Source of the DNA: Candidatus Omnitrophota bacterium
GTDB taxonomy: Bacteria; Omnitrophota; Gorgyraeia; Gygaellales; Profunditerraquicolaceae
Direction: 5' to 3'
Length of the DNA stretch: 64,000 bases
NCBI GenBank assembly: GCA_026387455.1
Contig: JAPLLR010000046.1
Span: forward strand, 4,921 to 68,920
In this document: positions 5,059 through 44,100 of the stretch, one piece after another
Position numbering within the stretch: the first letter of the stretch is position 1
Layout: the number at the start of each line of letters is the position of its first letter
Translations under genes and position numbers: made by a program
Notes under the pieces: model-generated
Database searches by the model: none
What the model saw: only the letters and a program-made list of their open reading frames with translations
Told to the model about the DNA's origin: nothing

Positions 5059-5072
5059 GAAGTGTCCCTAAT
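5056..5072. repeat. right inverted repeat of the transposase cassette
   Basis: GTAGGAAGTGTCCCTAA. It contains the TAG stop of the transposase (5056-5058) and, on the other strand, the TAG stop (5068-5070) of the convergent TPR gene. Confidence 0.9.
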
Positions 5073-7637: not shown

Positions 7638-7646
7638 TGACACAGT

Positions 7647-7880: not shown

Positions 7881-7889
7881 TTGGGTGTA

Positions 7890-8000: not shown

Positions 8001-8044
8001 TACCGACGAAAAAATCAGTATTTGCCAGTTCGGCTTTTATTTTT
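7993..8044 (+). terminator. putative intrinsic terminator / riboswitch expression platform
   Basis: Imperfect hairpin CTGCCGAATACCGA (7993-8006), loop cgaaaaaa, TCAGTATTTGCCAG (8015-8028). An alternative outer pairing is GCCGAA (7995-8000) with TTCGGC (8029-8034). It is followed by TTTTATTTTT (8035-8044). The left arm overlaps the 3' end of the aptamer. Confidence 0.45.
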
Positions 8045-8139
8045 AAGTAGTTAATAAGTAGTTTTAAAAATACTTTATAAACGAGAATATGAAAAACAAG
8101 AGGTTTTACCTCATAGTATTTAAATTAAAAGTATAATAA

Positions 8140-20100: not shown

Positions 20101-23100
20101 GGCTATTTTAGGAATTCGGTTTCAGACTCCTACTATCAGGGCTCTATCACTGGGGGATGGGAATCTTTATTAGGTGACGGATTCAGCAATTTTGTCAATC
20201 CTGAAAAGAGCAAAGACACCAATCCTATAACCAATCCCGAGCAGTATGCGGGATTGAGTTATTTCGCAACGCAGATGTGGTTATTGGGCGGTTACAAAGA
20301 AGGTGCAGGCCTAAAGAAAGGCGAAGCCAGAGGCACTCCGCTTTTAGATACATATCAAACCCTGACAGCCATAGAGCTTACACCAATGAATCTTATGCTT
20401 TTCCCCGGAAATGAGCTTGGTAGGCAGGTGGGCATGGTAAAAGAAGCGGCGACAGCAGGTAGAACTGAAGGCGATGCTTCTTCTTTCCGCGGCAGGTTAA
20501 ATCAGCTCGGAAACGCAAATGGCGGCCCCGGGCATCAGTTTGTGGAAAATCTTATTTCTGCAGCCCTACCTTTACGTTCTCCGCAAGCAACTCCTTCGAA
20601 TAAAAGTGAAGTTGCTCCTGTGCAATCTTCTACGGAAGCGGGAGGAACAGTAAGGTTAAATGAAAATGATGTAGTAGGCGATAGGGGCAGAAGAGCGGGG
20701 GGTAGCGATGTGAAGGCTCCTGCTTCTCAGCCTGAAATGTCACGTCCTAACTTCTTTCAGCGTTGGAGTCAGCGTAGTTATCTAAAGCAAGAAGGATACT
20801 CTTTTTCAGAAAGAAGAGCGATTGCAGATGGGCGTCTTGCGCCTACAGATAGAAGTGGAAATGTCAGGGCAGACGTAGTAAATCGTTTTAATGAGATTGG
20901 CGCTACTCCGACTTGGGTTGGAAGATCGCTTAATCGGGCAAGAGAAGCCACCACCACTTGGATTAAGAATCAGATAGACGCCAGCCCCACAGTGAACTGG
21001 TTTAAGAACGATGCCTTTGATATGTCTAAGTCTCCTGTGGTCGATGCCGGCAAAAAAGTAGCTGGCGCAGTAGCTGATGCAGGAAGGGCCACCGCAGACT
21101 GGGCTAAGAATGACGCACTGGATATGTCTAAGTCTCAGGTAGTCAACTGGGCCAAAGACACCAGCGTCGGCAAATGGCTGGCTAACGATGCCTTTGATAT
21201 GAATAAATCTCTTGTGGTCAACTGGGCAAAGAATGACGCCGCTCCTTGGGTCAAGAATCAGATAAATACTAGCCCCACAGTGAACTGGTTCAAGAATGAC
21301 GCCTTTGATATGTCTAAGTCTCGGGTTGTCAACTGGGCAAAGAACACTGCTCTTCCCAATATCGCTGCCTCTGCCAATCCTAAGAACTGGACCACCTATA
21401 ATTGGGCTAAGACAGCTGCTATCTGGGCAAGAGACACCGCCACCCCCTGGATTAAGAATCAGATAAATACCAGCCCCACAGTGAACTGGTTCAAGAATGT
21501 TTGGCAGCTTGCTACTTCCTCGCAGTATCGTTTCCTCAATAGACGCGGTATTAAAGATCCAACTACGAGAGCTGCAATCATCAGGGACGGATATTCAGCT
21601 CCGGAATCTCCCAATAAGACCTTATTTTATGAGATGCGCGCTGATCAATATTTAAAAGACAATGGTTTCTTCTTTAGAAGGCAAAGAACAGCGATTAGGC
21701 AAGGGCGTTTAAAATCTAATGATTTGAGTCTTAGCCGTGATTTTAGCGAAATTCGTAAGGGGCGCGTAGTTTATGATGAGGCGGCCCAAAATGATGTTTT
21801 ATCATCCGGCCGCAATGTACATCTGTCGATGGCTGGTGAATGGGCAGCGGATATAGGCGGAAGGAAGAAGGGTGATGGCGGAAGATCGTTAGAAGCCAAG
21901 ATTCTAAGAGTAGAAAAAGGCGAAGACGGCGCGACTCGCATTTGGTTGGATACAGAGGAGATCTTCGGTGGCCGCGGCGCTACCTCAAGGGACGGAAAGA
22001 CCATATACTTCAGCCGCAACGCGCACGATGGGACAGATGTGCATGAAAGCACAGAAGCAGCCTTGCTATCTAAAGGCATATCCCCGTCAGCGTCACATAA
22101 AATAGCGGCAGAGGCTGAGGTAAGGTATTTAGCGCGTACGCTCGGCTATGACTTAAATGATCCCAGCCAAAGAATGCTAGTAGAGGAAATGGCAAGGAGC
22201 CATTCTGATGCCACTAAGGTCGCTAATAAGGAAAGGGCTCCGCCAGCGCCAAAATCGCCTTCCCATGTAGTTGTTGCTCCCGCAGAAGGACCGGGTTTTA
22301 GAGCTGCTGTTGGAGAAGGCGAAAGTATCAGCGATGTTGCCATAAGAGCTGGCCGCAGGCCAGTAGCTATGCTTACCGAAGGCACACCCAGCGATGCCTC
22401 TCGTTCCAGAACCGCAGCCAATCCCGAATCCGAAACCGTATCTAAATCTCAAGAAGCAATTAAACAAGATAAGCTGACCAGAGAGGCCCGGATATCTGAA
22501 TTCAGGCGGCAGCAGGAAGAAAGACAGGAAATTGAAAGAGCCCAAAATATACTTGGGAGTAAGGATCTTAAGCCGCAATTTATCTTTGCCCCTGAGACTG
22601 GCAGGCGCGTATTCATCGCTACCGCTGATGGAAAGGTGGCATTAGTAAAACATGGAGAAGAGGCGCCGGATATATCCCGCAGACCCATTGCCCTTCTTCC
22701 TGCACCTAAACCTGCGATCGAAGTAAAATCTGAATCCAAATCTGCACCCGCGCAATCTAAAGAAGTTGCGGAATCCAAAGCCCAGCCTGATGATAGAGTG
22801 TCTGTGTCTAACGAAGCCAGGCTTAGGAATGAACAGGCCAATCAGGAAAAGAAGGCTGAGTTTAAAGCAAAACAGGAGAAACTTGAAAGAGTAGCAAAGA
22901 TTGTTTCTGAGACGCCTAATACCGATAAAGCCAAGCTAAGAGTGGCTAAGGAAGTAGTTAAAGATAGAAGCTTACCTAAGAGGGAGCGTTTAGCAGAGGC
23001 AGATAAACTTATAGAAGCAGCAAAGCCATATGCACCCAAGAAAGAAGCTGCTAAGCCAGAAGTCAAAGAGCCGGTTTCTCAGTTGGTTGAATTAGGCGAT

Positions 23101-26100
23101 GGTAAAGGCACGATCAAGGTAAAGGTAAATAATCCGGAAGCGCTCGCAGGAGACCAGAAGAAATTAGAGAGATTAAATCGCGCTGTCGCTAGGATAGAAA
23201 AACAGAATTCTCAAGCTCAGGATGAAGCGGTACAGGGCCAGATTCAGGAAGCTGGATTCTGGGCGAGATTAATCGGCAGAAAAGGCCGTTCAGCTTTTGA
23301 AGCCAGTCCTTCATCCAACCCTGCCGAAAGCCCCGCATTAAAAGAATTAAAAGCGCAACGCGATGCCTTAGCCGAGAAGATCACTAAGAATATGTCGCCT
23401 GTCCCTGAAGCTGATTTGGCCAGACAACATCTCCAGCAATTAAGGAAAGCCATAAATATTCTTAAGGAGACTACTGACTCTGACCGGGCTATGGATAGAG
23501 TGGTTAAGGAAGTAGTCAGCAAGGATAAAAAGCAAACCAACAAAGAGCGCCAAACAGAGGCGAAAAGGTTTATAGAAGAAGCCAGGCGCTATCTGCCTGA
23601 ATCGCAAGCCCCTAAGCCTGTTATACCAAAAGGTCCATCCGTCGTATATTTTGGCAACGAAAGCGGGCCAGTACAAAAAATCCATCTTAGCCCCAAAGAA
23701 ACAACGCAAGATGCAGCAGCGACAGCAGCGAAGGTTTTCCGCAAGCCTATTGCGCTTCTACCTGCTCATATATCTGCACCCAAGCCATTCTTTAGCAGAG
23801 TGATAGATGCCATAAAATCGAAGTTCTCTAGATCTGCTAAGTCTTCCGAGCCAGAGTTACTGCCTTCAGCTAGTCAGGAAGCAAAAGAGGCGATTAGAAA
23901 AGAAAGAGTAGCACAGAGAGATCAGCTTAAGAAAGTAGCGGCCATAGTAGCCGAAGCCGAGACTCCTGGTCAAGCTAAAGTAAAAGTAGCGCAGATGCTG
24001 CAGAGCGAGCCGGCTAAGAAAGACCTATCCAAAGAAGAGAGAAAGGTAGCTTTAAAGAGAGCAGAAGAGCTTATAGAAGAGGCAAAACCGTATGCACCTG
24101 AAGTCGAGCAAGGAAAAGAGCATGCCAGCAAGATCGAAAAAGTTACCAAGATCCTTCAGCAAACCACTGATTCTGATCAAGCCAGGGCAAAAGTCGTAAA
24201 AGAAGTAGTTTCAGACGGTAGAAAGCAGACTAAGAGAGAAAGAATTGTTGACCAGCGTAAGGCAGACCAGTTGATTGTAGAAGCCAGGCGCCAACTGTCT
24301 AAATCGCAAACTCCTAAGCCTGCTATGCCAAAGAGCCCATCCGTCATAAACTTTGGTAATGAAAGTGGGCCAGTAGTAAGAATCAACCTTGGCCCCGGAG
24401 AAACTGCGCAAGATGCAGCAGCGAAGGCTTTACGCAAACCTATTGCGTTTCTACCCGCACCTAAATCCCAAGCCAACAGGCAAGAAGTTGCTAAGCCTGC
24501 TCCATCCGAAGATGTTCGGCCGATGTCTGATGAAGCCATAGCTAAGAATCGGCTGGACAATAGGCAAAGGATAACTGAATGGAAAAACCTGAAGAGAATA
24601 GGACAGATACTTTTCGAAACAGCAGATATCCAGCAAGCCAAGGCAAGAGTAGCGCAAGAGGTGCTTGGGGTCGGTAAGGAAAGATCCCAGAGAGAGCAAA
24701 AAGCTGCGCTTAGGAAGGCAGAAGGGCTTATAGCAGAGGCAAGGCAACATGTGCCTAGCGCCACCACCACTACTGTTGCTCCCAAGTCCAAAATGACAGA
24801 GGTGGCTAGGATCGTGCGCGGTGAGAATGGCGAGCCTGCATTTGAGGCACATCCGACTATGAGTTCCTCCAGCGCGCAGTTGAAGGAGTATGTAGCTACA
24901 GAAGAAGCAGCCCATCTGACATTAGGTAACAGAGGCACAGCCGCGGAAGAAATCGCTGCTAATGTATTTACCCTTGAACGCTTAGGCATACGCGATGCTG
25001 AGAAAGTTACTGATCCGCATTTAAGAGCTTTAGCAGAGATATCATTGGACCATGGCGTAGAGAGCCCCATAGTAAGGACTGCCCGTTTTTATAGCGAGAT
25101 AGATGCGCAATTAAGAGACCAGCTTGTAGACAGCCATGGTAATTTGCGCCGGGACGTTTTGGATAACGCTACTAGACAGCTTGCGGGCCTTAGGAAAAGA
25201 AGCAGCGATGTAGAGGCTCGCAGAGACCATTTGAAAGATTTATTATCCTGGTCGCGCATAGCCGTCAGTAAGGAAGGCCAGCCTCAAGAAGTTTTGGCGC
25301 GTTCGCCGTTCAGGATGGCAGACGCTGGTAAAGAAAGCGCGCAGAAGACGCTAAGTGAATTAATTAGTCAAAGTAACTCCTTGTCTACAGAAGAGGCAAA
25401 AGCTCTTGGGGTTGCAATAAAGAATGCAATAAAATCAGGAACGCCAATTGATCAAATACAAGATCCTACCATTAGAAAGGCAGCTCAACTTTGGAAAAAA
25501 GCTTTTGAAAGTCCAGAGCTAAGAAAAGTGATGAGCTTAGAACTTAAGGAAGATCAGATAGCCCAGACTATATTAGAGGCTGTATCGAGGCCGATACTAG
25601 GTAGAGATTTGGGTGCTGGAAAGACAGCAGGTGATATCGCAGCCTTTGCAGTTCGTTTCCAGGTAGCTACGCAAGAAGGTAAAGAATTGAATGAAAGTTC
25701 TTGGAAAATAAAAGATTTCTTAATTGAGCAAGCAATTGATGGCTCTGACCCCATAGCAAGATTTTTTATGGAAGAAATCGCTAAATCCGCAAAGATATTG
25801 AGATGGGTTGTCGTGCCAGATGGAAAAGGCGGCACAGAGTTTAAAGAAGTGCCTATTGATGGTTTTGAAACCCCAGCGGACGCAAAGAGTAAATTTATTT
25901 TTGCTGATAGTGAAACTCTACTAGAAGTTTATCTAGGAGCAAAAGAGAAGAATGGCGAGAAAATGCGCGAAGCATTTAGGCAACTTACAGGAGCTAGCGC
26001 AGACGAAACACAGCTTTTCTTTGCCAATGCAACTTTGATTAAAGCAGAAATAGGGAAAATGTTTAGTCAGTTAAGTAGGGGAAATATTAAAAAAGCAGAG

Positions 26101-29100
26101 CTTATAGCTATTTTATATGAAAAATTAATGAAGTTAAAGGAAACCACGCCGGATTTAATAGATGGTCGATTAATCATAAAAGATGGATTAGGTAAGGAAG
26201 TAGAGGTTCATTCCTCAGCTTGTATAAAGGATGAATATCTACCGACGAAGTTACTTGATTTATATAGAAGCATGCGTAAAGCTAAAGAGTTACCCTTTTC
26301 AATGTCTTTCGAAGAATTTAAATCATATGCCCAGCATTGGGCTAGTTCTATGAATCAAAGAATTGACGCAAACGTCTATGTTGAGCTCGACCATTTCGTA
26401 ATGACGCCAGAAGAGAGGATTAAAGCTAACTCTCATCCTTATAGAGTAGCTCAAGAAGATGGGACGGGTCGTCCGAGTACTATTTTAGGAGATCCAATAG
26501 AGGCAGCTTTCTTAGTTGCTAGAATTACTGATGCTAAGCTGAAGTTAGTCTCCGAACCCTCTTTTGATAAGTATACCCAAGAGGAGCGAATAGCAGATAT
26601 AGCGAATGCTCGGCTTCAGGAGTCAAAGAAAAAAGCAGATTTTGCGGAGTTGATTAGCGGGGAATATGGCATAGGAGCAGATAAATTTACTGGCTTTACT
26701 GCAACCCCTGGTAGGGATATGTTACAGTATTATGGAGTAGGGAAGAAGCAACGCGATATACGCTTACTTGATCCGGAGAAATTAATTAAGGAAACGGATC
26801 GAGATTTTAGAGCGACACTTGACAAAGCTATTGAAGGTCAGATAGATACACATATTGGTAATATTAGAGATAATCCGCGCGCTTTACATTTAGGCATTGG
26901 TAGAGATGCAGCTATTGTAAGAAGAGCCTATGAAACAACAAAAAAAGCGGTAGAAGCTGGAGAATTAGTTAGTTCAGATGGTCGTCCTTACGAAGTTAAA
27001 TTTATTGAAGGGTTTGAACCAAAAACACAACAAGCATTGATGAAGGAGTATAGTAAAGGACGCCTTGAAAAACCGATGATTATATATGTTGTCGGTGATC
27101 CTTCAGGAGGTAATATAGCTGCTTTATCAAGAGGTGTAACATCAGCTGCTACACATCAGCTAACCATGGAAGGTATAACTAATATAACTCAGCATCTAGG
27201 TAGGGCAGGAACAGAAGGTAGGGCCGGAGGTTTACATCCAAAGGATCCAGTGAAATTTTTAACACTATCTTTAGAAGATCAGTGGATTACTCCTAAGCAA
27301 AAGAAAGAATTAGCCGGGTTAACTGGTAGAGACTTGACTAAGAAATTAATAGATATTGGGTATAATATTGATACAGTTATTGGAGAACAAGGTTTTCACC
27401 GTACATTAATTACTTCAGTTTCAAATATACAATATACACAAGCAGAGTTAGCTGCTTTAAAGGCAAATTTACAGGCAAGAAGAGATTCTCAGCGGACACA
27501 AAATAGAGATTTAGGCGTATCTTTGAATGGTACCTTAAATAATGTGCCCGAAGGCGCGCGTAAAGTTATAGAAGCAAAGTTTTCTAATGCTCAACGCGGT
27601 TGGACAATTCCCGCAAGCGATTCTAAAACAGCTCCGCTTAATTTAACTACTGCGGGCAGTCTCGTCTGGCAACAAACCCAGTCACTTATGCATGCTGCGC
27701 AAGACGACCGTAAGTCAATAGCTTCTCTTAATCTTGGTTTGTCTTCAACAACCCAGGCAGCGTTACAGGCAAGAGATTTAACCACGCAGGAAGCTTTTAC
27801 TGCTGTAACTGAGATGGTAGATAATGGCGTTCTGAATTTAGCCCATCCTGAAAGAGGAATTACCTCGTTAGCAGCTATCGGTGGAGCGGTGAGGGCGCTA
27901 AACAGCCAGAATTCGACTCAGCCGCTTAATATAGGTAAGGCTGAAATCGATGATATGTATAATCCTGTTTCCCGCGATTATAGCTTACTGCGTAGTGTGA
28001 CTACACAACTGCAGAATACTAATCCGCAATTAGCCAGAGAGCTGCAAAGTGTTTATAGTGGTACTTATACCACTTCGCAAAGACAAGAATCTATCCGCCA
28101 AGCTGAATTAAAACTTGAGGCTAGGCAGATTCGCTTAGTGAATAACCAAGAAGCAGGATGGGAAAAGACAAAGAGAGGAATTGGTTTTGTTGCTGGCGGC
28201 GCGGTGCTTGGTACGGTGGCCGGCGGTGTCTCCTGGTTCCAGAATAAACAGCGCCCGACAAAAGACGAGATGAAGGATATATACAGGAATACTAGTTTTA
28301 TCTTGTCGAACCTTCCTTTAATAATCAGGGCTAAACCCGAAGCAGGGGTTGCGGTGGCGAAATTATCATTCCTGGCACTGGGAATTGTGCTAGCTCTTAA
28401 ATTAGCGCCCCCAGCTATACCTTTATTAGCTAAATTAGCCGCAAGCACCAGCCTGGCTGGCTTTCTAGCTCCGATAGTGACTTCTTCAACAACTAATCTC
28501 GCGATATTAGCAGGGACAAGTGCTGCCATAGGATTGCCGGCAATGAAAGCTGTGGATGTTGCAGCCAGAAGGCAACAGGTCACAGTAGGCAAGATCACTC
28601 CTTTGGCCCAGGAATTAGGCGTATCCGAGGGGCAGTTAGCTCCATTATTCACTCCGCGCATCCAGCCGCGCGCGCCAAGTGAGATGATTGGCCGTACTTC
28701 TTTCCTGCAGCAGGCTAATCCTAGCAAAGCCGCGAAAATGGATGTTAATAAGTTGGTTCCCGGCCTTAATATGGATGAGGTAAAAGGGTTCGTTAGTATC
28801 TTTAACCGTCCATATCGTAATGCCGTAAATGCCACCACAAAGTTAATAGAAGCCAATTCCTATTTCAGCGCGGACAATCTGCAGGCGCAGGCTTTTAGAT
28901 CGATTAATCTTTCGGCCAAAGCCGAAGAGCAGAGCGAGCGGGAAGCAAACGCAAAGAGGCAGGAGCTAAAGGAGGAAGCAAGGAAGCTTAAGATCCTGAC
29001 TCAGGCTTTATTAGCGCTAGCGGGAAATGAAAGCCGGCCTAATTCTGGTAGAGTAAAATTAAGCCGGGTCAAAGAGAAATTAGAGCGCTCCGGAGAGGAT

Positions 29101-32100
29101 TTGTGGGAGGTAGCAGAGAAGTATCGTCTTATCCAACCGGAAAATGCGGTTACCTTTGATATGGCTGAGCCGGTGGTAGAGAGATTATCCCGCAAGGCAG
29201 GCATCTCTAGAGATGAGGCCAGAGAATTTGTTTATCCGTTGGTAACTCAGAGGACTAACCAGAATATCGCGCAAGACGTGCAGAATGCGCATAATGAGTT
29301 GATGGTAACCATGCCAGTAGCTGCCGATATGATACCTTTACCTACCATCGCCAGTGCGACTAGAGATGGCTCATGGCAGCGCTTTACGGACAGATTAAGA
29401 GAGCGCAATGACGCTGACCTTGCGGAAGCCAAACTTATTGCCGAGGCGGTTAACAATACTCAGGCAAAGGGTTGGAATATTGGCAGAGTTCTTACACATA
29501 TTAGCCCGGAGAATTTAGCAAAGACAAGGCAAGATATTGCTACCGGTAAAACAGATACTAATGTTCCGGAAATTGCCAAGCCTGCTGAGCCGAAAGCTCC
29601 TACTCAGGCAGAGATTCGCTCTAGCCTCGAAACTTTAAGCCAGAAGACAGAACGGGTCACTCTTGCCGGAGGACGCAAGGTAGAGGGAGTCAGGGTAGAG
29701 GCCGGCACAGCGGTTGAGATCAGCAATCACCGTCCGGATGGAAAATTTGTAGCTAAGGATCTAGCCAAGCCTAAGGATACGGCAAAGATTAGCGTAAATA
29801 AGGACGGCTCTGTCTTAATTACTAGCAGAAACGGTTTAGGCGATAAACTTGAGAAATTAATCAAGAAAGAAGTTCCGCAAGCGCCTTATGTAGACGCGGT
29901 AAAGCCGATCTCTAGTATTACGCAGACTGTCACTACGATTGCTGTGTGGGGTTTTAGTGTTGCGATTGTTTTAGCAGCAATGCATACCGGTTGGTTTGAC
30001 CCCGCAGCATTAGCGCATCTTGCCGGCTGGAAGGCGTTCTTAGCCAAGGGAATCATTAACGGATCGGTTATGTTGGCAGCTTTGACTTTGCATGAACTTG
30101 GTCATGCTGCTGTCGCTTTCTTTGCCGGAGACAAGAGCCAGAAGGTCAGGGACAGGTTGACGCTCAATCCGCTTAAGCATTTAAGCGTATGGTCTTTACC
30201 TATATTAGCAGGATTACCGGGCGCGGCAAAGCCGGTAGAAGTCAATTTTGGCAGATTAAATGACAATAAGGTGAGGGCAGTAGCTGCCGCAGGTCCGGCA
30301 GTTAACTTAGTTACTGCTGGCCTGGCGCTAGGAATATTCTTATTGACCGGTAATCCCACGGTTGCCTTGTTCGCAAAGCAGTTTGCAATTATCAGCGCTG
30401 TGCTAGGTACCGTTAACCTTATTCCATTTGCCCTTCCTCAATGGATAAGTAAGTTTATCAATAAAGGCAACAATAAGCCGGTATTATTTGACGGCGCGCG
30501 CGTGATCTTAGGCGCGAAAGAGAAAGTTTCGCCTAAGATGCAAATGGTAGGCGGTGTTGCCCTTATGCTTTATATGTTCGGGCTTGGGCCAATTCTGCAA
30601 GGACTTGGTTTTGGCGCTGGATTAGGCGCAGGCATGGGCGGCGGTGGAGCCGGTGTAGGAGTAGGCGGCGCAGCAGGCACCATCGGCAAAGGTAGTGGTT
30701 CTGGCGGTGGCGCTGGCAGAGGCACAGCTGAGGTTAAGAGAATTGAAGAAGATGCCAAAAAGGTCAAGCAGTGGTTTAATGATGATTTGAAGCAGATAAG
30801 AGAGGCAAGAGAGGCTCTAGACAGACGGCTGAGAGAGTTACGCAGTCTTATACCTAAACCTCCAATATTAAGCGAAGAGCAGAGAATATTTACTGAGAAT
30901 ATCTTCAGCCGCATCTATCCGCGTTTGATGACTGTCGGAACTCGTCTAGTGGATAATTACCAGAGACTAGCTGGTGAATATGGCTTAAAGCCGGGCAATA
31001 TACGTCTTTATGTGGTTGGAGGCACTGCCAAGAATAAACAGTTAATCGGCTTCAACAGTGATATTGATTTAACTTTTGTTGTAGAAAATTCCGCTGGTTC
31101 TTTAGAGGTCCTGCCTAATAGAGAAGAGTTAGTGCAGAGCCTCTTTGCGGACACGATAAGAGATGTCTTCGGCGATGCCACTGATCAGGAGAGGGCAGCC
31201 ATCCGCGGTAAACTAGATATGTTAAGGTTAGGAGGAGCGCTGAATGAGATTAATGGTCCAGCATTGCTCCTGGCTAGCAGCGAATCCAATAAAGCGCAAC
31301 AGTCTTCACCTAAGCCTACTCAGCCTACTGGACAAGGTCAAAATAGGCATCAGGAGACTCCGATTGCCCCGACACCATCCACGACTTTGCCAACTCAGGA
31401 GCAAACCGGAGAAAAATCGCCTCTCAGAGGAGCTGTGGTGGGCATGTTTGGCTCAAGCATTGGCGTAGGCAGCCATCCGATAGACATGCTCGCGCCTTTA
31501 GATACCTTAGGTAATACTGTCAATTCACTACAACATTTACTCAGTATAGGTGCTGCACAACGTGTGCTTAGCCCGGGTATTCCCGGGGCGACTGCGAATG
31601 CGCTTTCGCAGGTCGTCGGTACGACAAGTGCGCACAATATAGTTACAATAGTTGCAGTAGTAGGATTAGTTGTAGTAGTAGTCACAGTTGGCGCAATAGC
31701 TCTGGTTAATAGCTTCAGAGCAGATGCGAAAACTGCAGGTGCAGGAAGTGTAATCAGCGGAGACGCTGAAAAGACCAGTGGTTCCCAGTTTGCGCCCGGT
31801 AAAGATGCCGGAAACAAAGGTTCCAGAGGTGTAACCGAAGGAACTCGTAATGGCACGGGGTTGCCTGTAGGAAACAATACAGGTAATACCGGAAATACTG
31901 GTAATGCAGCTACTGGATCCAATGGAAATAATGCAGGTTCTGGCAAGAGAACCGGTGGTTGGGCGAGTGCGGTCGAATTAGTAAGAAAACTGTCTTCATT
32001 TGTACGTATCAAAGGTCCCGCAAATAGCCTCACTCCCGCGCAAGTTGTGTCGGAAACCTATGGCGCTCGTGGTCCGCCCGCAGCACTAACAATCATTATA

Positions 32101-35100
32101 GCTACTTTCGCCGCTACGGTAATGCTGGGCAACATCTATGCCGCATCAGCGGTAACGGTTGCCGGTTTACTCGGCGGATTAGCCATAACAGCCCTCTCGG
32201 TAATTGCCTCCTTTAGCATTAATCATATATACTCCTCAAGACTTTATCCGCAAGACGGCCAGGCCAGCATTATAACCACAGGCGTCTACCGTTATTCTCG
32301 GCACCCGCAGCATCTTTGTCTGCAGTTATCCATGCTTGGTTTCTTGGCGATGTTCCCCACAGTTTATACCGCCATTACCGTCATCGCCGTTGTTTCATTA
32401 TTCCATCTTGAATCCAGAAAAGAGGAAGCGAAGTTATTAAATGACTCAAAGCTGGGAGCAGATTATGCCGAGTATCTCAAGAATTCCGGCTTGAAGATGC
32501 TCCCCAGAGATATTGCTAAAAAGATTAGGCCGTATACTTCTTCCGTGGCAGGAGTGGTGACGGCTATTGTTGTAATCGGAGGCTTATTAGCGGCCCCCCT
32601 CCAGGGATCGACCCCCGCTAAAGCCTCCGATACAACGTATACTACAACCAATCCAATCAATAATATAAATTTAACCAAGTATGGCGAGCCTTCCGTGGCA
32701 GGAGTTCGTCGTACAAATGTTGTATCAGAGGGCTCCACAGAAGGCCGTCCCTCCAGGACATTGACCCCTTTTGCCGGAGCCCTCTTTACAACTCAAGGAG
32801 GTGTACTATGTGCCCTATTAATATTAACACTATTAGCATTGACCACATCGTTGATTTTGGCAAGGACCGCACCACTTTCGCAGCAGCCCGTGAACCTGAT
32901 ACGCACCACCTTAGGATCTTCCTTATTTATCAGGATACTGGCAACGTCTACACTCGTAACGGCCGGGCTGATAGCTGGGAGGAGCTTATTGGCGGCAGGC
33001 GTGATACCATACTTGAGCGCGTTCTTGATGCTCGTAGGAACGGTGTTCCTACTTATCGACTTAACGGTTCGCACGAATAAAATAGGATTAACGGTTCGCA
33101 CGAATAACAATAACATAGGAGGTGTAAAATGTGCACAGATTATAACGAATTACAATTCAACCACTTCGTCGTTACAGCCGACGGCACAATCTTTGGAAGT
33201 GCTAGACACGAAGGTCACACCTACAACTTTATTCTCCACGGCAACTATGTCCAGGCCCAACACGGTGAACAATGGATCGATCTGGACACGCCTATCGCAG
33301 AAGTTGTCAGGAGAAGGGCTCAATCAGCCTACGCTATCGCTCCCCGGTACAAGGCCAGCAGGTTCATCTTCGATTAGAACTGCCGGAGCAGTGGTAGCTT
33401 TGGTGTTGGGTGTGATTCTTATTGCCGGCGCGCTGGCAGGCATTCCTCATGGAGTGGCCCCTGTCAGCGCCGCCGTTGCATTGGGGATGTGCAGCCAGGA
33501 AGGAGTTGCTACCGAGGAAGATAGCTTTAGGAATTTAAGGTTAACCCCTGATTACATCCGAAGCGTCCGCTTCGATGAGGAAGAAATAAGAGGGGCGGAT
33601 GAAACTGAACGCCGCATCAATCTTCTTATAAAAGGTATGGGGGACTCTAATTCTCCTTCCGAAATTGGAATAGTAAAGATCCCGGGAAGCCTGAAACGGG
33701 ATAGCTGCCGGGTGTTCAGGTTCAGTAATATAGAAATGACATTTTTTGAGGTCACCAGCCGCTTTGATTCGCAGGAAGGAAGATTCTCTTTGCCGGCGTT
33801 GCCTCAACAGCATGCTTTCCTGATTTCATCAAAATCAAATGATGTCATAGGGCACGGAATCATTAATCGGCCTGTCGGTATTAACGATGAAGTATGGTTC
33901 AGGTATGCTATCCACGGCGGACCTCACAGCAAAATTGGAGCTGATTTCCGGAAAAAAGATTATTATGGGACCAAGGCTTTGGTTTTGATTATGGCGATAT
34001 GTGTAAGCAGCGGTATTTTCAAGGGCCCTGTGAATGCGATTACAACATATTTTGAGAGAGATGAACAGCGCGCTGATCCGGAAGCAGTTCCCGCGGGTAA
34101 GAAATTTATATATGCCAGAGGATGTACTCCTGTTAAGGATAATGATTATTCTCTCTGGCAGTTTAGAATGGATGGTAAAGCCATACCTACCGTAGATGTA
34201 GATGAAAAAGAGCTTGCTAAGCTTGATGGTCGGTCAGCGCAGGAAGACGACTTTGTGGAAGTCAAACTCGGTGACCTGGTGTTTGAGAACGGTCAGCTTT
34301 TCTACCGCCCGAAGGCAAAACCTGAGGATTCAAAGGGCTTGTCCGGTTTTGCGCTTAACTTGAGCCTCTGGCAGTCAGGTTTGATTGTCACTGCAGTTAT
34401 CGTTTTAGTCGCAGCTATAGCCGTAGCCGTAATGGCTAATAGCGTCAGGGGAGATATTTCTTACTTGGATAAGGCTAGAGTTATTCTAGCCAGCCGCTAT
34501 CTGGAAGATTATCAGCGCAGGCAGTTGTTTACGAGAATGGCTAAGGGAGAAATCAGGTTTACCCAGGACACTAGGTTCAGCGACGAAGCGGTGTCCATAT
34601 CAGGAAAGTCATTAAAAGATATTGCCCAGGAAGTATTAAAAGTTATTAATTACTATGAAAATTCGACGCCCTCAGTCAAGGCCAAGGGCACCAATATTCT
34701 GGCCAGACTGTTTTCTTCCCTTGGTTTTATAGTGTTTGTTATTGTGGGTATATATGAATTTGTCTATGCCATGTCTGATTATAACGATGGCAGGGGCAAA
34801 AATTACGCTGCTATGAATAATGTGGATGAACTTAGCTATTCCGTTAGAGATCGTATTTGGGCTTCTCAGGAAGAGTTCATCAGATTATTAGGCGAGGATC
34901 CCAGTAAGGCTGTAAAAGCCGACAAAAAAGAGAAAATCGGCAAGGTAGCTCAGATGTTGGATTTCATGAATGTCCATCGCCAGGCCATCCAGAAATATGC
35001 CGATCAGTATGGAATCGATCCGGAGCTACTTGCCGCGATCCTCTTGACTGAAAGACTGGATATGTTTGAAGGAGATTTCCCGTGGGAGGTTAATACTGAC

Positions 35101-38100
35101 AGATGGAGCGTATTAATCGGCCGCGATGCCTCCGTGGGTATCGGTCAGGTGCGCATGAGCACTGCCCGTTCACTCTTAAAGGCTGCCAAGTATCCTGAGT
35201 TTAAAGGCAGGAAAACCAATGTCTCCAACTGGAATCTTTATAAGATGCTCACTAATGAAGATCCGGAGTTTAATATTATGATAGCGGCTATGGCCTTAGC
35301 AGATGTAAGGGACGGTATTGCCAGGGATATTAAGAGCAGCAGGTTGCCGCAGCTTAATGCCGAGCACTTAAGACTGGAAATGGCTTATCGTTACACTTCT
35401 TCCTTGAAAGGCCCGGTGGGTGCGCCGGTAAGCTTCGCAGAGTATAATAAACAGATAGAGAATAAAGATAAGAAGGCGTACAACAGGTCACAGGCAAATG
35501 AGTATGCTTATTGGGTAAGAGCGAATAGGGATTTAATCCGCGGTTTATCCATCTTTACAAATGCTCCCATAGCCAGAAGCTCGCTGCCGGCATTCAGCAT
35601 CTCAGGGGGATTGGATCTGATAGTGGCATTAGTTCTGGCGGTAGTAATTATCGATGCTATCTCGGCGACTTGGAGATATGTTGATCATAAGTTAGGCGAC
35701 CGCCGCGCAAATGAGAGAAAAGACGGATTGTACGCATCTGATAAATATAGAGAGTTTAAGAATAAGGATAGGCAAGAGAAGTTGAACGAGATCAAGGGGC
35801 AGTTTAGGCGCGTAAGAGAAGTAGCGGTATTATGGATAGGGTTGGCAGTCGTGGTGGCTGGGCTGAAGTGGGGCCTGAATAATTGCCGCAAAGACAATGC
35901 TCCGAGCCTGCGTGAAATTGCAGCTGAAGTTTGCGCTGATGCCCAGACCATTAAGGATGAAGGTAATAAATTTATCCAGTGGGGTAAGGAAAGATTCAAT
36001 GATCCGCGCTCTTTCGGGCAGCAGGCTAATTATGCTGCCAGAGAGTTTGGCCGGGATCTTGGCAGTGGTTTGAAACAGAATGAATTGCTTATGCAGGGCG
36101 TAAGCGGAAAAATGGACGGCGAGTTTGCCCTGAAGAAGATAGAGGAAATCAGGGAGGAAAACAGAAAGCAAACCACCAACTCCCTGCCGGCAATCAGCAT
36201 CATCGCGCCAGCAGCGATAATTTCCCTGGTTGCCTTAGCAGTGCTGGTTTATGCGATCTATAGGATTTGCCTGGTTAATAGATATTCCCGCGATAGAGTT
36301 ATAGATATGGTTGCTACAAAGCTGGAAGATAAAATAATTGTTGATACCGAGGAATTAGCCGAGACCAGGATCAGTGGATTAAATGACGCAGAAGAGCGCT
36401 TTGTCCGTGCGATAGTATTGGCAGAAGAGGCGCTTAAGGTCAGGGACCATGAGTTAATGGCTGAGGCAGTAGCTGGACTTTTCGTGGAAACAGAAACCGG
36501 CATAGATATTAAGCTGTTGAAGGATTACTTGGGATTAAGAGAAAAATATGAGAATCCGAAGATGTCTCGTGAAGAAAAAAGAAAGACCCAGCTATCTATA
36601 GCCAGGCATGAGGTGAAGCACGTTATTTCCGGCGTTATGGAAACTCCTAGAAATTCACAGCAGAAGCTGCCTTACTTCGCATATTTTTCTCCCTCCAGCT
36701 TTGGCGGCAGCGTCCAGGTTTCTGTTACTTGCGAGAATACCCGGAAAGCGATCCGTAGGCTCCAAGATATAGAAGCAATCGCCGGCCGAGTCTCAAATCG
36801 TCTCAATAAAGAGGGAGTTATAGATTACCAGGGCCTGGATGCTGAGGCTAATTTTGGCCTGAAGGCAAAAGAGGTGCGTTTTGTCATGGCGATAGTTCAG
36901 GCAGAAAGGGCCATGCGTAAGGCCAAGTCTGATTTAATGGCAGATGCCATCGTAACGCTTTTCACCGCTAAGGAAGTTTCCGCGGATGTATACTTCCTTG
37001 AGAGATACCTGTCCTTAAGAAAAGATTACGAACGCAGAAGGCAGGCTGATGAAGAGGAAGGGCGAGGCAAGGCGCATCATGAAGCCAGGCTGCATATTGT
37101 CAGGTCCGAGCTAAAAGATGTCCTTTCTGCCGTAATCAATATTCGCAAAGAGCAAGGTATTCAGCTGCCCGGATTTGCATACTTCTCACCGGCAGCCTTT
37201 GGCGGCGGAGTTGCAGTTTCCGTCAGCAGCGCAAAAGTAGAACCCATTATCCGTAGAGAGGTTGGCAGCAGGTTTAAAATCGGTGGTACTGAATATAATG
37301 AGGCGGATTCCAGTCGCGGGCATCGCATCGCCGGAGGAAAGGCTTGGAATATTCTGGCGGATTGGGATGTAAACACTGAAGGCGTTTATTTCGAAATGTT
37401 GAAAAGGTTAAGCAGCAAGGGTGTTGATTTAGCGTCCGTCTCAGCTGATGGCCGGGCTGATGTCTTAAGGGAAGTCTTTGATACTATCTTGAATCTTGTC
37501 CCCTTCAATGCAAATTTTGAAGGCCTCAGCAAAATCGGTAAAGTATTCGAGCAAGGCGGAGTCTGCAAGCATCATGGCGTATTAATTGCCATGTTTGTGG
37601 AGCGCATACTTAACAATTATAGCTCTAAATGGAAAGGCGCAATTTACTTTGTTTACGGCCCCAGCCATAATCCCACCCATGCCTGGGCCCTTTATGTGAC
37701 CAGGGCTGGAGATTATTGCGTTTTTGACGTAACACAGAGAAAGATCGTTGGTCTGGATGGGCAATTTAGTTGTAACGATCAAGGCACAAAGGTTCCTTAT
37801 TCTGATGGTGTAGGTATGAATGATATCATCGCACGCACCAACGCAAGATTACGGGAGAGCAAAGAAGAATCAGATAACTATAGCGTTACCGGCTTGCCTA
37901 CATTTGGAGAAGCGATTCGCAGGGATCCCCAGAATCGCAGACCGCCCTCTACTGATGATAGAGAGTTGCCGGCACTTGTCTTCGTAGATACGCAGACATT
38001 AGTTGTAGTAGCTGCGGTGGCGGCAGTGATTATCGGCGCAGCTTACCTTGTTTACCGGGTCTATAACGGTTATATGAATCACAAAGTAGCAGTGGCAAGC

Positions 38101-41100
38101 ATAAATGAGATGGCCAGGCAAGCTAGCCGCGCGCCGAATAATATGTTTAACCGCGCCAATATTGTACGCATATCCGTATTACTTGCCGCAGTTATTCTGT
38201 TAATCTCCGTAGGATTATTCCATTTCGTAATTCTGGCAGCAACCACAGTAGAAGCAGATATCGAAGAAACAAAGTCTAGGATCAAGGCTGAAATATTAAG
38301 GCTTAGCGGTTCTGTATATGACAATGAGAGGTCTAAAGTAATAGCCGAATTCTTTAAAGGTTTGCCGGAGCAAGACCTTGCTCTGGCAGTGGATGTACTT
38401 TTGGAATTATCCGATGATCCTAGTATTGGACAATGCTGCATAAATCACTCTATGACCCTTTCTCTTGCAGAGAGCTGCCGCGTCAGGCCGGAGCTTATGG
38501 AGATAGTGGCTTCGAGAATTGCGAATTTAATAAGTCAGGGCATAGGCAGGAAGGCTATGCTGGTAGAGATCATCAATTTATTTAGTCTGGTATCTTATGA
38601 GAACCGCGTCTTAGGAAAATCAGATTTCTCAGCGATGCTCTTGTGGAAGATGCAGGAATTAGGCATACCTATGCCGAGAATTATGGAATTGTTGGGTGGG
38701 TGTTTCAAGACCTGGCGTGAAGATTTGGAATATGATTATACATGGCCTGAACAATCTCTCGGAGAGAGCATTGGTTTAAATTGCAATGGCGGAGCGGTAA
38801 TATTGAAGTCCATTGATAAGAGCTGGTATTATATTTTTAACACAGACAATGTTTGTATAGGCAGCGCGCTGATTAGCTGCGCTATGCAAAGGAATGCAGC
38901 TTACCTTTATATTAATATATGGACTGGAGCAGGCAAGGGCATAGGGACTGAGATTATGCGCTTTGTCGCCGAAAAGATAAGCAGAGTTGATGGGCCCAGC
39001 GTTATAGGGGTATTTGTCCCGGCGGACAAGGATTATGTAAGATTCTTGCTGCGCTGCGCAAAGCTGGGAGTTATCAATAGAGTTGAGCTTAAAGTCGAAG
39101 ATAGCGCTAAGTATATCAATAGCGTAGGCATGGGCAATTGGAATATGCCGGAACAGTCTTCGGGTTGGCAGGTAATTACGAATGAAGCAGAGATGGATAA
39201 TTTTGGCAAAGGCAGAATATTTGCCAGATGCATTGTAGATGCAAACCAGCCGCAGACTCCTTCCGTGGCAGGAAAGAATGCGGCTACTGACAATAAGGGC
39301 ACGGAGGAACAGAGAAAGGTAAGCTCTTCCGTAGCCCTTGTTACAGACAAGCTTGGGGTGCTGGTAGCGATAGTTGGAGCATCAATTCTATTAGCGTTGT
39401 CAGCGAAATTCTTAGGGCTGGCTTTATTAATCGGCGTTGCAGCGGTAAACAATGATGATGCGAAATACGTGTTGAATATCGAACTCCTCAAGGCAGAGCT
39501 TGTCAATAAGGGGATTCTTCGCGATAAAGATCAACCGCTTAATATTAATCCTGCAGTATTAATTGCTGTTAGCGATTTCTGCTATACCGATGGAGAGTAT
39601 TTGGTAGGAAGAGAATTCCGTAGGCTTGCCAAGGCATTAGGGCTTGTGATGAGGGAGCTGGAGAGAAGAACCGGTAAACCGGCTGCAGAGATCAGTCTTA
39701 GCCAGAGCAGCCTTACCAAAGAAGAAATCGCAAACATCTTAAATGCGGCTAAGGAAGAAGATTATGCGCAAAGAGAGGTAAGCGCGTTCTCCAGAAAGAT
39801 AGAGCTTGGCCAGAGGTTGCTTAAGGGCGGCACTTCTGCCGAGACCATCCTGCAATTCTTAACTGGTAGATTCTTTGGGGCAACCTCAGGGTCCACTAGG
39901 TCTATCAGCGCTACTGAACATAAAGTGAAAGATTTACTCTTTGATATAGATCATACCCAGGAAGGCAAGTCTTTGCGTAAGAAAGAAGAGACAGCCAGAT
40001 TACTGAAAGAGCTTCTCGGCCAGGTGGTGATCGACAATGTCAATATTCCCAAGTTTTTCGCCTTTGATATCGATGACACCTTAACCAAAGCAGACATTAA
40101 ATCCTTTAACGCTATGGTTGAAGTCTTAAAAGAAGACCCATCTGCATTTGTAGGAATAATTACCGGAACAGGCGCTTTTGACCTGAATTATGATTCAGAA
40201 GAAGAGCGCATTGCTGAGAAAGACGCAATATATGACACCAAGATTAAGCCGGCTCTGGTTAAACTTGGCCTGAACCCGGATCGCCTAGATTTTGTTATCT
40301 CTGTTGTTTCTACTCCAAAGCCGAGAAAGCAATGGACTGAGTCGCCTATGGTTAATCCTTGGGTTAGCATTAATGCATACTGGTGTGTAAAGATTAATGA
40401 CGGAAACGGTGGTTTTATCAAACAGTATCCGACAGAAAGCAACTTTAGAGGTATAAATAAGCTCACCGGAGCCAGCAAATTATTCGAATATTTTGCCCAT
40501 AAATTCTCTAACAACGCAACAGTTTCTTGGGAAAGGGCAGCTCAGTTGGCTACTCAGTTCCTGCATAGGTCAGTATTGGTTATGGCGGATGATGATCTTG
40601 AGCATGCGCGTATTCCTGTGATTTGCAAGCCTACCAATAGCAAGGAAAAAGGTATGTTGCAGCAGCTTGGCGCTCATTCGCGCGAAAACGAGATACAGGA
40701 GCCTTTCGGAGTAGGCAGGATTTATATTAATACTAACGTTATCAAGTGCCCCTGGTTAACCATCGAAAAAGCTCCTGAAGAGTTTGTTTTTGATTTTGAA
40801 ATTGATGTCATCCTGGGTCTGACTACATTGCTTGAGCATATGAATGACCCTAAGCGTAACGCGCGTATCTTTAACGTGGAAATCGAAGCCCATCGCGTTA
40901 AACCGGTTAACGGTACTGCTAACGGTAATTCCACAGATCCTCAGGTCGCGACTTACCGCGCTCCCGGCTCAAGGGATAGGGGCGCGCGCAAGGGCTTGCC
41001 CAAGGAGATCAGAAACGCCGAAGAAAAAGATTCCGCGAACATCAGGCAATACTTGCTTGACGATGACGGCGAGGTAGCTAAGCTCATCGCAGGGCGCAAT

Positions 41101-44100
41101 AGCAGCGAATTAACATATTACGGATTCTATAAGAAGCTGGCAGAAGAGATCCTGCCTCAGGGCAAGGTTATCTTTAAGGTTATACCTTCCCAGAATATGG
41201 GCTTCAGGAGAGACGACGGCGATAAGACCTATATCTATGCCGTCGGCACAAAAGGCGATATTACCTATATCTATGTCACTTCTGCTTTATATGAAAAGAT
41301 CAGGGCAAGCACATATTTCAAAGCTGCCCTTTGCGTCCATGAGGTAGGCGAGACTAGAGACGTGTTCAATCACCTGACTGCCATGAAAGAAGAGATCCGC
41401 TTTTCCAGCGATCCGAAAAGCAACTTAAGCGACATGCAGCGTCTTGTATTTGATTCCGAGAATGATAAAGGAAACATGGCTTACCTATTAAGCATTATCC
41501 CGGATCGCCTTGTCCAGAAGGCATATTCTGATATCACCAGCGAGATGATCAGCTATGTAAGCCTGCTTATCGCCAAGCAGGTGCACGAAAGGCCGGTAGA
41601 CGCAGCTGTCATAGAGGAGGATGCTAATATCGCTGATTCTTTGCGTCATAGGCTATTCGATTCCATAAATAAGGCTACCCAGAATATTAGCATCCTTGGG
41701 CAGGGAGGCATATTATCAGAAGAGGTAAGGGGCGCCCTGAAAACTACCGAAGAATCAATCAACATCATTCTTACTTCCATAGAGGATGGAAAATTGAACC
41801 CCATAGCCAAAGACGCAGCGATCAAATTGCTTAAGAAACAGGCCAGGATCCTTAGGGAATTAACAGAAAATATGGCTTATTTGGAAAGATTCGAATCTTT
41901 TAATTCTCTTAAGAAGGATATCGATGAGTTCTACAAGAGGGTAGTTGAGGGGACACCTACGGTGGTAAAGGACCAGGAGCTGATTGACCTGGCTGATTTT
42001 ATGCAAGCCATCCACACTGAGCATTATGGGTATGGCTTTAGGCCGGTTGTTTCTGACCCTGGAATGCCTTTACCTATATTAATTAATGCGCATGACCTGA
42101 TGAGGATCTTTGAAGATCTATTACAGGCAATAGCTAGGAGAGCACATAAATCTAACACGGCAGTAGTATTTGTCACTGAACCCGGATTAATTAAAGTGAT
42201 TTTTAAGAACACCGATGCAGACGTAGTTGCTGTTCAGGCACTGCTGGAGAAGTGGCATGGCAGGGCATATCGTACACAGATAATCGGCACTTTAGGTGAT
42301 ATCGTCTTAGAGTTCCCTAAGGCTTTCAAGCTCTATCAGACTATTTCAAATGAAGTATTGGCTCAACTTGCAAATACAGATTGGGTTGTTTCTGTCTGTC
42401 AGCATAAAGAAAACCATGAGAATTTTATTGTTGATGAAAAGGTAAGTAGGATGACCGTTTACGGCCAGTATCTTTCACATGGCATGTGTCCGCAGTGCGA
42501 AAAGAAGAATCGTCCTGTTGAGTCAGAAGCTCAGGCAGCCGCAGCGAAGGTTCCGTCTGCGCCAACCAAGATCAGAGTTTTGTTTGTGGATGACGAAAAA
42601 GCAATTAGGGATATGATGGCGGGAAGAAATAATATGCCAGGATACCTGGCGATGATAGCTAAAGATAAGACAGTGAATCTTTCTTTTGAAGTGGTGATCG
42701 CGGAAAACGCCCAGAAGGCGCTTAACGCGTTTGTAGATGCCCAAAAGAAAGGACAACCTTTTGACTTAGTGGTCACCGATATGTCCATGCCGAAAAATCC
42801 TGATGAAGAGATCGAAGGCGGACGTGAATTAGCCCAGGCGATTAAGAAGATTGCACCCCAGACTTATATTATTATGGTCAGCGGTCATCACAGCCAGATG
42901 ACAGAGGTGGCCCAAGCTATCAAGGAAAATGTAATCAATAGTTTCTACACCAAGCCATTTATCGGAGAGGCAGTTAAGGAAGCGCTGCTAGGGTTTAAGA
43001 CCGCGCCCAACCTACAGGAAAAAGCACCTGTTAAGCAGGATGTTAGTATACTTGGTTCTGCGGCTGCCAGTGCCACAGCAGCGGCTACAGCAGCGCTGGC
43101 TTTCTACGCAGCAAAGGCAGTGATTATTTCCAGCTTTCATCCTTTCGCCATAGCGTTATTCGGAGTTTTAGCAGCAGTGTGTTTTGTCTCTGCGGCATGG
43201 GCTTATCTTTTTGGTTCGCAGGCTATCAGGCTATGGTTAACCAGGGCCAAGCCTGTACGCGCGCCTCCTGAGGCAAGAGCCAGGTTAGAAGCACAGCTGC
43301 AGGATTTCTTCGGGCCTGATGTCAAGGTGGTTCTGGAATCCGACTGTAAGACTATTGCCTCAAGCGATAAAGATAATAAGACAGTATTTGTTGATATCGA
43401 TTGGCTTTATAGGGTAGCTCCCCGCGCAACTGAACTTACCTCGTTCCAGAAATCTCTCCTCACCCATGAAAAAGCCCACTTAAACGGTGCCACAGAATCA
43501 GAAGCTTATATTGCCCAGGTTCTCGCTTCCCTTGTCCAGGATATTAATAATGCTAAGGGCGTTAAATTATGGGCGCTGTTCCTGGGTGTAGTTACATTAT
43601 GCCTAAGTTATAATAAACTTATTGCCGCATTTCCGATTTTAGCCACAGGCTGGATCGGAGTCCTTCTTATTGGCACAGCACTGGTGTTGTTGGGTGTTAA
43701 CTTTGTGCTTGCAAAATTCACCAAGAGAGGGGCTTCAGCTTTCTTTACCACAGTTGCATTGACTTTCTTCTTTGTCGGTCTTCTATTGGCGGTGGATGTG
43801 TTTAACCCGCTTTACGGAAATATCCTGAAGAGCTGGTTTCCGCAGACATGGTTGGCTTACATTGCTGACATGCGCGGAGCGGCAATAGCGATAGTAGCTT
43901 TTATTTCTCTGATCGTTCTGCCGGCTTTGATCAGGGAATATCAGGATAAGTTGGCCAAAGAGGATATCTATAAATACGATATCAAGGCTTTAAAAGATAA
44001 TCTTCTCAGGTTTATTAACGACGACATCAAGGATGAAAAGGTCAGGCAAAACTATATTGATCAGGTGGAAAGAATTGCTGTAAATAATTCTCGGGCAAAT

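Follow-up and report, generated by a model that had tools for sequence, protein, structure and literature searches.

Enzyme-like modules, among them an apparently intact site-2 protease, in the transmembrane zone of an Omnitrophota giant protein

The 64,000-nucleotide (nt) stretch of a Candidatus Omnitrophota contig analysed here (JAPLLR010000046.1; hereafter the window) contains a giant open reading frame (ORF) that encodes a mosaic protein with numerous transmembrane (TM) helices. Three enzyme-like modules lie close together in this protein, namely a site-2 protease (S2P) of family M50, a nucleotidyltransferase (NTase)-fold module and a methyltransferase-like module of the ICMT/PEMT type, and with moderate confidence they are best explained as a small 'enzyme island' of three independent, tethered modules in its membrane-embedded central zone. 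The region had been flagged in a first-pass annotation at nt 29,900-32,500, which is not a 2.6-kb gene of its own and corresponds to amino acids (aa) 7255-8135 of the giant ORF. The statement that the three elements are contained in one polypeptide within 2.6 kb, parted by Gly-rich and Asn/Gly/Thr-rich linkers and TM helices, was borne out, all motifs being found in frame 1 of the forward strand; the M50 and ICMT profile matches given below greatly exceed chance expectation. The coordinates of the features are collected in Table 1; aa position i of the giant protein corresponds to nt 8140+3(i-1).

For the M50 module, the excised domain matched PF02163 with 29.0 bits (E 8e-7) against a Pfam gathering threshold (GA) of 27.2. 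The score falls to 22-23 bits when the domain is scanned inside pieces of 1,000-5,000 aa, so that it is easily overlooked. A phmmer search of 5.8 billion proteins with the M50 piece returned stand-alone site-2 proteases (best E 6.5e-14). All 120 matches listed carry PF02163, and almost all of them are stand-alone proteins, named site-2 protease, YwhC or Zn-dependent protease, with lengths of ~130-350 aa, mostly about 200 aa (~190-245 aa); the earlier view that the three families normally occur as separate small proteins holds for M50 at least. A profile built from the 120 stand-alone relatives, with the window sequence left out, scores the module at 98 bits, with a local alignment that ends at NLIP, before the insertion described below. 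No match was found by phmmer among the sequences of the Protein Data Bank (PDB).

Every column that is invariant in alignments of 20 and 121 sequences is kept in the window, including H7318, E7319, H7322, GD, R.TLNP..H, a Pro, G-P..N, N7426, P7429 and D7451-G7452. The HELGH motif is situated in a predicted TM helix, at the C-terminal end of a hydrophobic segment (aa 7302-7325), and both RLTLNPLKH (aa 7339-7347) and AGPAVN (aa 7384-7389) fall on invariant columns. All of the M50 motifs quoted in the first-pass annotation were found; however, its 'NLIP...DG' element does not have the canonical short spacing, as NLIP and DG are 21 residues apart. The 19-residue insertion after NLIP (FALPQWISKFINKGNNKPV) is absent from all 120 aligned relatives. 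Despite this split, N7426, P7429, D7451 and G7452 were aligned by MAFFT to invariant or near-invariant columns, and D7451 is the putative third zinc ligand. The AlphaFold2 (AF2) model of the module is all-helical with the expected helix order (pLDDT 79, pTM 0.72), and the insertion is modelled as a short helix (pLDDT ~80). In a Foldseek search of the PDB, the S2P of known structure mjS2P (3b4r_B) was placed at rank 2 with a probability of 0.90, but with a non-significant E value of 0.47 and a TM-score of 0.36-0.38.

The resemblance to stand-alone small S2Ps (~200 aa; mjS2P, PDB 3B4R) extends to the HExxH motif in a TM helix, the GRLTLNPLxH loop, the AGPxxN helix and NxxP...DG, with the same helix order and a core identity of 30-46%. 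Unlike these proteins, the window module is located ~7,300 residues into a giant polytopic protein, possesses an extra lead-in TM helix as well as the NxxP-DG insertion, and has a Gly-rich segment in place of the small-S2P C-terminal helix. Judged by its conserved residues, the module is a genuine small S2P of the YwhC/COG1994 type with an apparently intact ligand set. As both the HExxH and the Asp ligands seem to have been preserved, zinc-dependent proteolysis within the membrane is its most likely activity.

For the second module, the NTase motif reported earlier was recovered as YVVGG, 11 residues and SDIDL (aa 7624-7644), which fits the pattern hG[GS]-x(9-13)-Dh[DE]h. Among the profiles named in the first-pass annotation, those for M50 and ICMT scored above GA, and NTP_transf_2 gave the window module 17.5 bits (E 0.0055), below its GA of 21; the assignments of M50 and ICMT are firm and that of the NTase is moderately so. 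An exhaustive HMMER search of 1.84 billion representatives returned two homologues, one within a protein of 3,340 aa (P0219, aa 2572-2678) and one in a protein of 167 aa (P0225), both 35-36% identical to the window module. In the alignment of these three sequences the lead helix, 'PG.I.LY.VGG' and 'SDIDL.F.V.N..GSL' are conserved, with GG and SDIDL being invariant. NTP_transf_2 was matched by all three sequences (best E 1.4e-5) and GlnE by two of them. Foldseek gave no significant match for the structure model, a profile of the alignment retrieved only noise from the PDB, and a word-index homology search with the NTase piece gave no match. In all probability the module has the fold of a minimal nucleotidyltransferase of the Pol-beta type, with the GG...DxD motif preserved. 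Compared with the MNT/NTP_transf_2 proteins of known structure (PDB 2RFF, 1YLQ and HI0073, 1NO5), it is sub-threshold, lacks a HEPN partner and has no identified third acidic residue; in contrast to MNT, it belongs to a recurring, unannotated module family of large proteins (P0219, P0225).

A separate observation concerns P0219, which is complete at 3,340 aa (locus L014, 10001-20023) and carries six copies of '[KR]D[EQ]A[MI][ILV]T' at apparent module borders, where they may be processing sites. This motif, also written as '[KR]D[EQ]AM[ILV]T' and considered as a possible cleavage motif, is absent from the giant protein of the window.

For the third module, the ICMT/PEMT signature noted in the first-pass annotation was found, and the Pfam scores exceed the GA for ICMT (33.3 bits, GA 24, E 7e-8), PEMT (29.4 bits, GA 25) and DUF1295 (21.9 bits, GA 20.4). 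A weak match to archaeal ICMT (PDB 4a2n_B, E 0.0028) was aligned over 4A2N residues 98-191, from the G.Y..RHP loop to EE...FG..Y.EY. The C-terminal core that binds S-adenosylmethionine (SAM), with G.Y...RHP, the hydrophobic hairpin and EE...FG..Y.EY, is shared with ICMT/Ste14 (Ma-ICMT, 4A2N) and with the ICMT, PEMT and DUF1295 families. Unlike ICMT/Ste14, the window module is fused to a larger protein and matches the model over its C-terminal two thirds only, with no prenylation machinery or CaaX substrate in evidence. An ICMT-like paralogue in a 2,400-aa protein (P0121, considered below) is 39-45% identical to the window module, and the RHP.H...EE core is common to both. By its motifs and profile scores, the module belongs to the ICMT/PEMT superfamily of SAM-dependent membrane methyltransferases, and nothing points to a prenylcysteine substrate.

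Topology was estimated from hydropathy and from the numbers of Lys and Arg (K/R) in 15-residue flanks, the K/R-rich side being taken as cytoplasmic. The K/R counts alternate cleanly along the block. The loops after the HELGH helix and after the NLIP helix (the latter with D7451), the segment after TMf, the RHP loop and the EE tail are K/R-rich, and the TMa-b, TMc-d and TMg-h turns are K/R-poor. It is predicted from these counts that HELGH, the LDG segment and the RHP and EE motifs of the ICMT-like module are located on the same, cytoplasmic, face of the membrane. The active sites of S2Ps and ICMTs open toward the cytoplasmic face, as in RseP, mjS2P and Ma-ICMT, and the predicted topology agrees with this. 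The incompatible compartments that the first-pass annotation had considered for the catalytic motifs do not appear for M50 and ICMT. Published work has cautioned that TM predictions for giant proteins are unreliable.

If the favoured reading is correct, each module would work on its own as a tethered enzyme, on the cytoplasmic side of the inner membrane of the producing cell. The M50 module would cut helix-destabilised TM or juxtamembrane segments, for which the giant polypeptide itself would be the most economical substrate, and this would offer one route to cutting the giant protein into pieces. The ICMT-like module would methylate a carboxylate or a lipid head group at the membrane interface. 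Autoprocessing of the giant protein by M50 is plausible but speculative. If any part of this protein cleaves inside the membrane, we infer that M50 is the likeliest to do so, possibly with the giant polypeptide itself as its target.

Several observations speak against this reading of the block. No invariant Asp or Glu, as sought for a third carboxylate, follows DID in the three-sequence alignment, and the NTase structure model is of low confidence (pLDDT 62). By a plain count of TM helices the NTase module would be extracytoplasmic and thus separated from nucleoside triphosphates; it would be inside only if the weak segments at aa 7490-7512 (Gly-rich) and aa 7764-7785 both cross the membrane, an option that fits the K/R-rich sequence right after the Gly-rich segment. 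In the M50 module, the third zinc ligand could be moved out of place by the residues inserted between NxxP and DG, and the hidden Markov model alignment stops before this insertion. The NCBIfam model isopcys_mtase (NF040696) gives the ICMT-like module 31.9 bits, far under its equivalog cut-off of 160. The signature known from the Ste14 literature is RHPxY, a hydrophobic stretch and EE; the window reads RHPxH (RHPQH), a 32-residue hydrophobic hairpin and then KEEAKL, the His in place of Tyr being found also in P0121. Finally, the finding discussed below that the trio is not conserved rests on about five other proteins, and the representative library returned no self-match to the giant protein of the window, which indicates that giant ORFs are under-sampled in it.

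Some of these features could also be taken to mean that the three domains are degenerate relics, inactive pseudo-enzymes retained as membrane anchors or scaffold in a fast-evolving giant protein. The low Pfam scores close to their thresholds, the third-ligand motif split by the insertion, RHPxH in place of RHPxY and the NTase without an identifiable third carboxylate would all fit such a history, which is nevertheless unlikely. Every invariant residue of small S2Ps (H, E, H, GD, R.TLNP..H, P, GP..N, N..P and DG) has been kept while ~95% of the protein diverged, and this pattern indicates purifying selection on catalysis. Likewise, the three NTase homologues have GG and SDIDL in common without exception at an overall identity of only ~36%, and the RHP.H...EE core persists in the P0121 paralogue.

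Whether the three modules form a unit was assessed from their neighbours in other proteins. P0121 (MCX5706631.1) is a partial 'glycosyltransferase' of 2,400 aa that fills a 7.2-kb contig, with GT4/GT1 domains followed by the ICMT-like module; neither M50 nor NTase was found within ~1,700 aa upstream or 500 aa downstream of this module. It is probably from the same metagenome-assembled genome (MAG) as the window, because its accession falls in the series of the window proteins, and it implies either that there is another giant gene or that this fragment belongs to a distal portion of the one in the window. The SPGIP segment, which is 30% identical to P0121 aa 2027-2126 (E 1.4e-4), precedes the ICMT-like module in the window and follows it in P0121. 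P0219 has the NTase module only, with neither M50 nor ICMT, and in P0236 (4,189 aa) a pair of ClpB-like AAA modules and NHL repeats come after M50. P0240 (MFA5336699.1, locus L017) is a 3,036-aa Omnitrophota 'site-2 protease family protein' in which M50 comes after ~30 TM helices, and its gene adjoins a gene call of >4,700 aa on the contig; no NTase or ICMT was detected within 20 kb of this locus. Like the window protein, P0240 is an Omnitrophota protein of great length with many TM helices and an M50 module placed late in it, and the two modules are 47% identical over the N-terminal half of the domain. Unlike the window module, P0240 has the canonical NLIPLWPLDG without insertion, and there is no wider collinearity. 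The M50 module of P0131 likewise has no ICMT or NTase neighbours.

P0121 was the only protein of the representative library with matches to two or more parts of the block. No relative was found to be encoded in a genome-contig scan with the block or in metagenome-contig scans with the NTase and ICMT alignments, and a word-index homology search with the whole 881-aa block gave no match, probably because it was swamped by the low-complexity linkers. Second copies of the M50, NTase or ICMT-like modules were not found within the window. In this small sample, the trio appears not to be a conserved cassette, and the three domains appear to have been shuffled independently. As the homologous modules in other large proteins have different neighbours, an obligate three-step pathway is not indicated.

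These neighbourhoods bear on the alternative that the trio is a functional cassette that cleaves and then caps, in which M50 would cleave the giant protein or a partner in a segment close to the membrane, the ICMT-like module would methyl-esterify the carboxylate of the new C-terminus and the NTase would add a further modification. In eukaryotic CaaX processing, a membrane protease (Ste24 or Rce1) is likewise followed by ICMT/Ste14. A cassette of this kind would suit the adjacency of the modules within 2.6 kb of one polypeptide and the predicted location of the M50 and ICMT catalytic motif sets on the same side of the membrane. The association of M50 with an NTase also recurs outside giant proteins: in four of seven stand-alone small-S2P loci (L013 3787-5642, L015 2785-4621, L020 1764-3624 and L018 35-3633), which are of differing sources, a PolyA_pol-family NTase gene lies immediately upstream on the same strand, and in three of the four it overlaps the start of the M50 gene. 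However, these PolyA_pol neighbours resemble housekeeping CCA-adding enzymes, and the adjacency, though still a lead for an M50-NTase link, may reflect the housekeeping synteny cca-M50-scpA-scpB. In an hhalign comparison of PolyA_pol with the window NTase, only the helix-strand-GG-DxD core was common (probability 60%, 39 columns). An ICMT/PEMT neighbour was found at none of the seven stand-alone S2P loci, and the P0121 paralogue and the M50 modules of P0236, P0240 and P0131 all lack the other members of the trio nearby. The cassette is for these reasons improbable. It would be a considerable long shot that M50 and the ICMT-like module together make up a maturation unit built into the giant protein, a proposal by analogy in which the polypeptide would be cut, for example, in the neighbouring segment that is rich in Gly and helix-destabilised, and the carboxylate thus exposed would be capped by methyl-esterification.

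The giant ORF itself runs on the forward strand, without stops and in a single frame, from its ATG start (nt 8140) as far as the last base of the window, nt 64000 (at least 18,620 codons, translation table 11, with no alternative code required). It is at least 55.9 kb long and exits the window at the 3' end; the contig carrying MCX5705601.1 has a length of 132,931 bp. One TM helix was predicted from hydropathy at aa 23-41, ahead of the C39 domain. No hydrophobic helices were found in aa 42-6734, followed by ~35-40 in aa 6735-12400, the TM-dense zone in which the flagged block sits, and none in aa 12402-18620. Over the 18,620 residues, Pfam recognised only C39, M50, ICMT/PEMT and a receiver domain, and ~95% of the protein is 'dark' sequence without detectable homology. 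It is scarcely credible that the ORF is an assembly chimera or a set of several genes with the three domains on separate small proteins: although the nearest relatives of each domain are mostly small stand-alone proteins and giant ORFs are often doubted, 18,620 sense codons follow one another at a GC content of ~46%, a portion of the upstream region is identical in an independent Logan assembly, promoter and terminator signals inside the block are not more numerous than in shuffled sequence, and the architecture fits published Omnitrophota giant genes, for one of which expression has been reported.

Omnitrophota giant genes have been described as encoding an N-terminal C39 domain near signal peptides, numerous TM helices and very divergent enzyme domains, with a type II secretion-like locus upstream (10.1101/2023.11.21.568195; 10.64898/2026.06.07.730766). 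Because these hallmarks match, the ORF is assigned to the Omnitrophota giant proteins: it is a member of this known mosaic class, with C39 and a TM helix at its N-terminus, many TM helices and GspE-like genes upstream. The features shared with giants of the 'Archaeovorin'-type and C39-only architectures include the origin from Omnitrophota, the ORF of tens of kb, the N-terminal TM helix or signal with C39 and the numerous TM helices, as well as scattered divergent enzyme domains (peptidases and methyltransferases among them), a receiver domain and upstream GspE-like secretion genes. In contrast, the Archaeovorin set of glycosyltransferases, NUDIX, SecA-DEAD and glycoside hydrolases was not detected by Pfam in the 18,620 aa of the window. 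West-Roberts et al. 2023 (bioRxiv 10.1101/2023.11.21.568195) used a giant-gene threshold of >90 kb, and a 2026 survey (10.64898/2026.06.07.730766) distinguished a 'C39-only' architecture cluster and classed 46% of long proteins as a TM-only, membrane-anchored type. Gigantic proteins with membrane-embedded lipid-modifying domains, peptidases, methylases and receiver domains were described in another study. The main texts of the two giant-gene preprints make no mention of M50, ICMT or nucleotidyltransferase, and their supplementary files contain no PF02163, PF04140 or PF01909. The first-pass annotation regarded the fusion of the three families as unusual; this does not hold for a protein class that is defined by the joining of enzyme domains, peptidases, methylases and TM segments into mosaics. 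The block is a fresh instance of that class and does not represent a novel type of system.

Among the genes that precede the giant gene, the products of three, the two ATPases and the TPR protein, were identified by exact NCBI look-up as the Candidatus Omnitrophota proteins MCX5705601.1, MCX5705602.1 and MCX5705604.1, and two further ORFs have no Pfam matches. The relatives of the T2SSE ATPase in GTDB species genomes are from Omnitrophota MAGs. At Omnitrophota loci with an 81-89% identical ATPase, the following 10 kb contained no homologue of the giant gene. The antisense ORFs of the flagged region are all of 212 aa or less and are regarded as by-products of the coding strand.

Other features of the giant protein lie outside the flagged block. 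The receiver domain is embedded in the TM-rich zone, immediately ahead of a further cluster of TM helices. Repeats detected by self-BLAST are confined to aa 2517-3173, 4701-5550 and 9391-9666 (nt ~15688-17658, ~22240-24789 and ~36310-37137) and to a tandem array, and none is present in the flagged block. The three internal duplications are 27-41% identical, with otherwise unique surroundings. The tandem array (nt 59707-63159, aa ~17190-18340) consists of units of ~69-71 aa (207-213 nt), the copies of which are 40-72% identical. A Glyoxalase match to this array (41 bits) was rejected as a spurious summed Pfam score, no stretch being significant individually.

Table 1. Features of the window, with positions in nt and residue numbers referring to the giant protein.
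Feature	Position (nt)	Strand	Remarks
GspE-like T2SSE ATPase gene, first	1820..2893	+	Pfam T2SSE, E 1.8e-47
GspE-like T2SSE ATPase gene, second	2994..4322	+	Pfam T2SSE, E 1.9e-31
IS200/Y1-type transposase gene	4441..5058	+	between the GspE-like ATPase genes and the giant gene
TPR_12 gene	5068..6132	-	between the GspE-like ATPase genes and the giant gene
Giant ORF	8140..64000	+	stop-free frame, at least 18,620 codons
Peptidase_C39-like domain, N-terminal (aa 182-261)	8683..8922	+	Pfam PF03412, 32.6 bits vs GA 22
M50/S2P module (aa 7262-7491)	29923..30612	+	PF02163; lead-in helix TMa and four-helix small-S2P core TMb-TMe
HELGH zinc-binding/catalytic motif (aa 7318-7322; H7318, E7319, H7322)	30091..30105	+	C-terminal end of TMb
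NLIP (aa 7426-7429), 19-residue insertion (aa 7430-7448) and LFDG (DG aa 7451-7452)	30415..30495	+	MAFFT
Gly-rich, weakly hydrophobic linker (aa 7490-7528)	30607..30723	+	possibly a flexible linker or a weak extra membrane segment
NTase-fold module (aa 7548-7715)	30781..31284	+	long lead helix, strand, GG, loop and SDIDL strand; core nt 31009-31071
'SPGIP' module (aa 7725-7832) and strongly hydrophobic TMf (aa 7833-7856)	31312..31707	+	no Pfam match
Low-complexity linker, Asn/Gly/Thr-rich	31708..31959	+	N/G/T-rich at aa 7911-7935
ICMT/PEMT-like methyltransferase module (aa 7981-8133)	32080..32538	+	two TM helices, RHP loop, helical hairpin, C-terminal EE...G..Y.EY
ICMT motif GVYRYSRHPQH	32287..32313	+	
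ICMT motif RKEEAKL	32416..32436	+	
ICMT motif GADYAEYL	32455..32478	+	
Response-regulator receiver domain (aa 11515-11615)	42682..42984	+	38.1 bits vs GA 30.2

Whether giant proteins stay single polypeptides or are cut has been left as an explicitly open question in the published work, and the cutters proposed to date are C39 and S8 peptidase domains only. An apparently intact intramembrane metalloprotease amid ~40 TM helices is a concrete candidate for the in-membrane cleavage of giants. If a cleave-then-cap unit were in fact present, bacteria would have a counterpart of CaaX processing that does without prenylation, and the way in which giants are dissected into functional pieces would be explained. 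The fusion of such domains, surprising by eye, is the normal state for this class of proteins, and as ~95% of the protein lacks homology, the few parts of it that can be recognised (the C39, M50 and receiver domains, the NTase and the ICMT-like module) are the only experimental handles that it offers.

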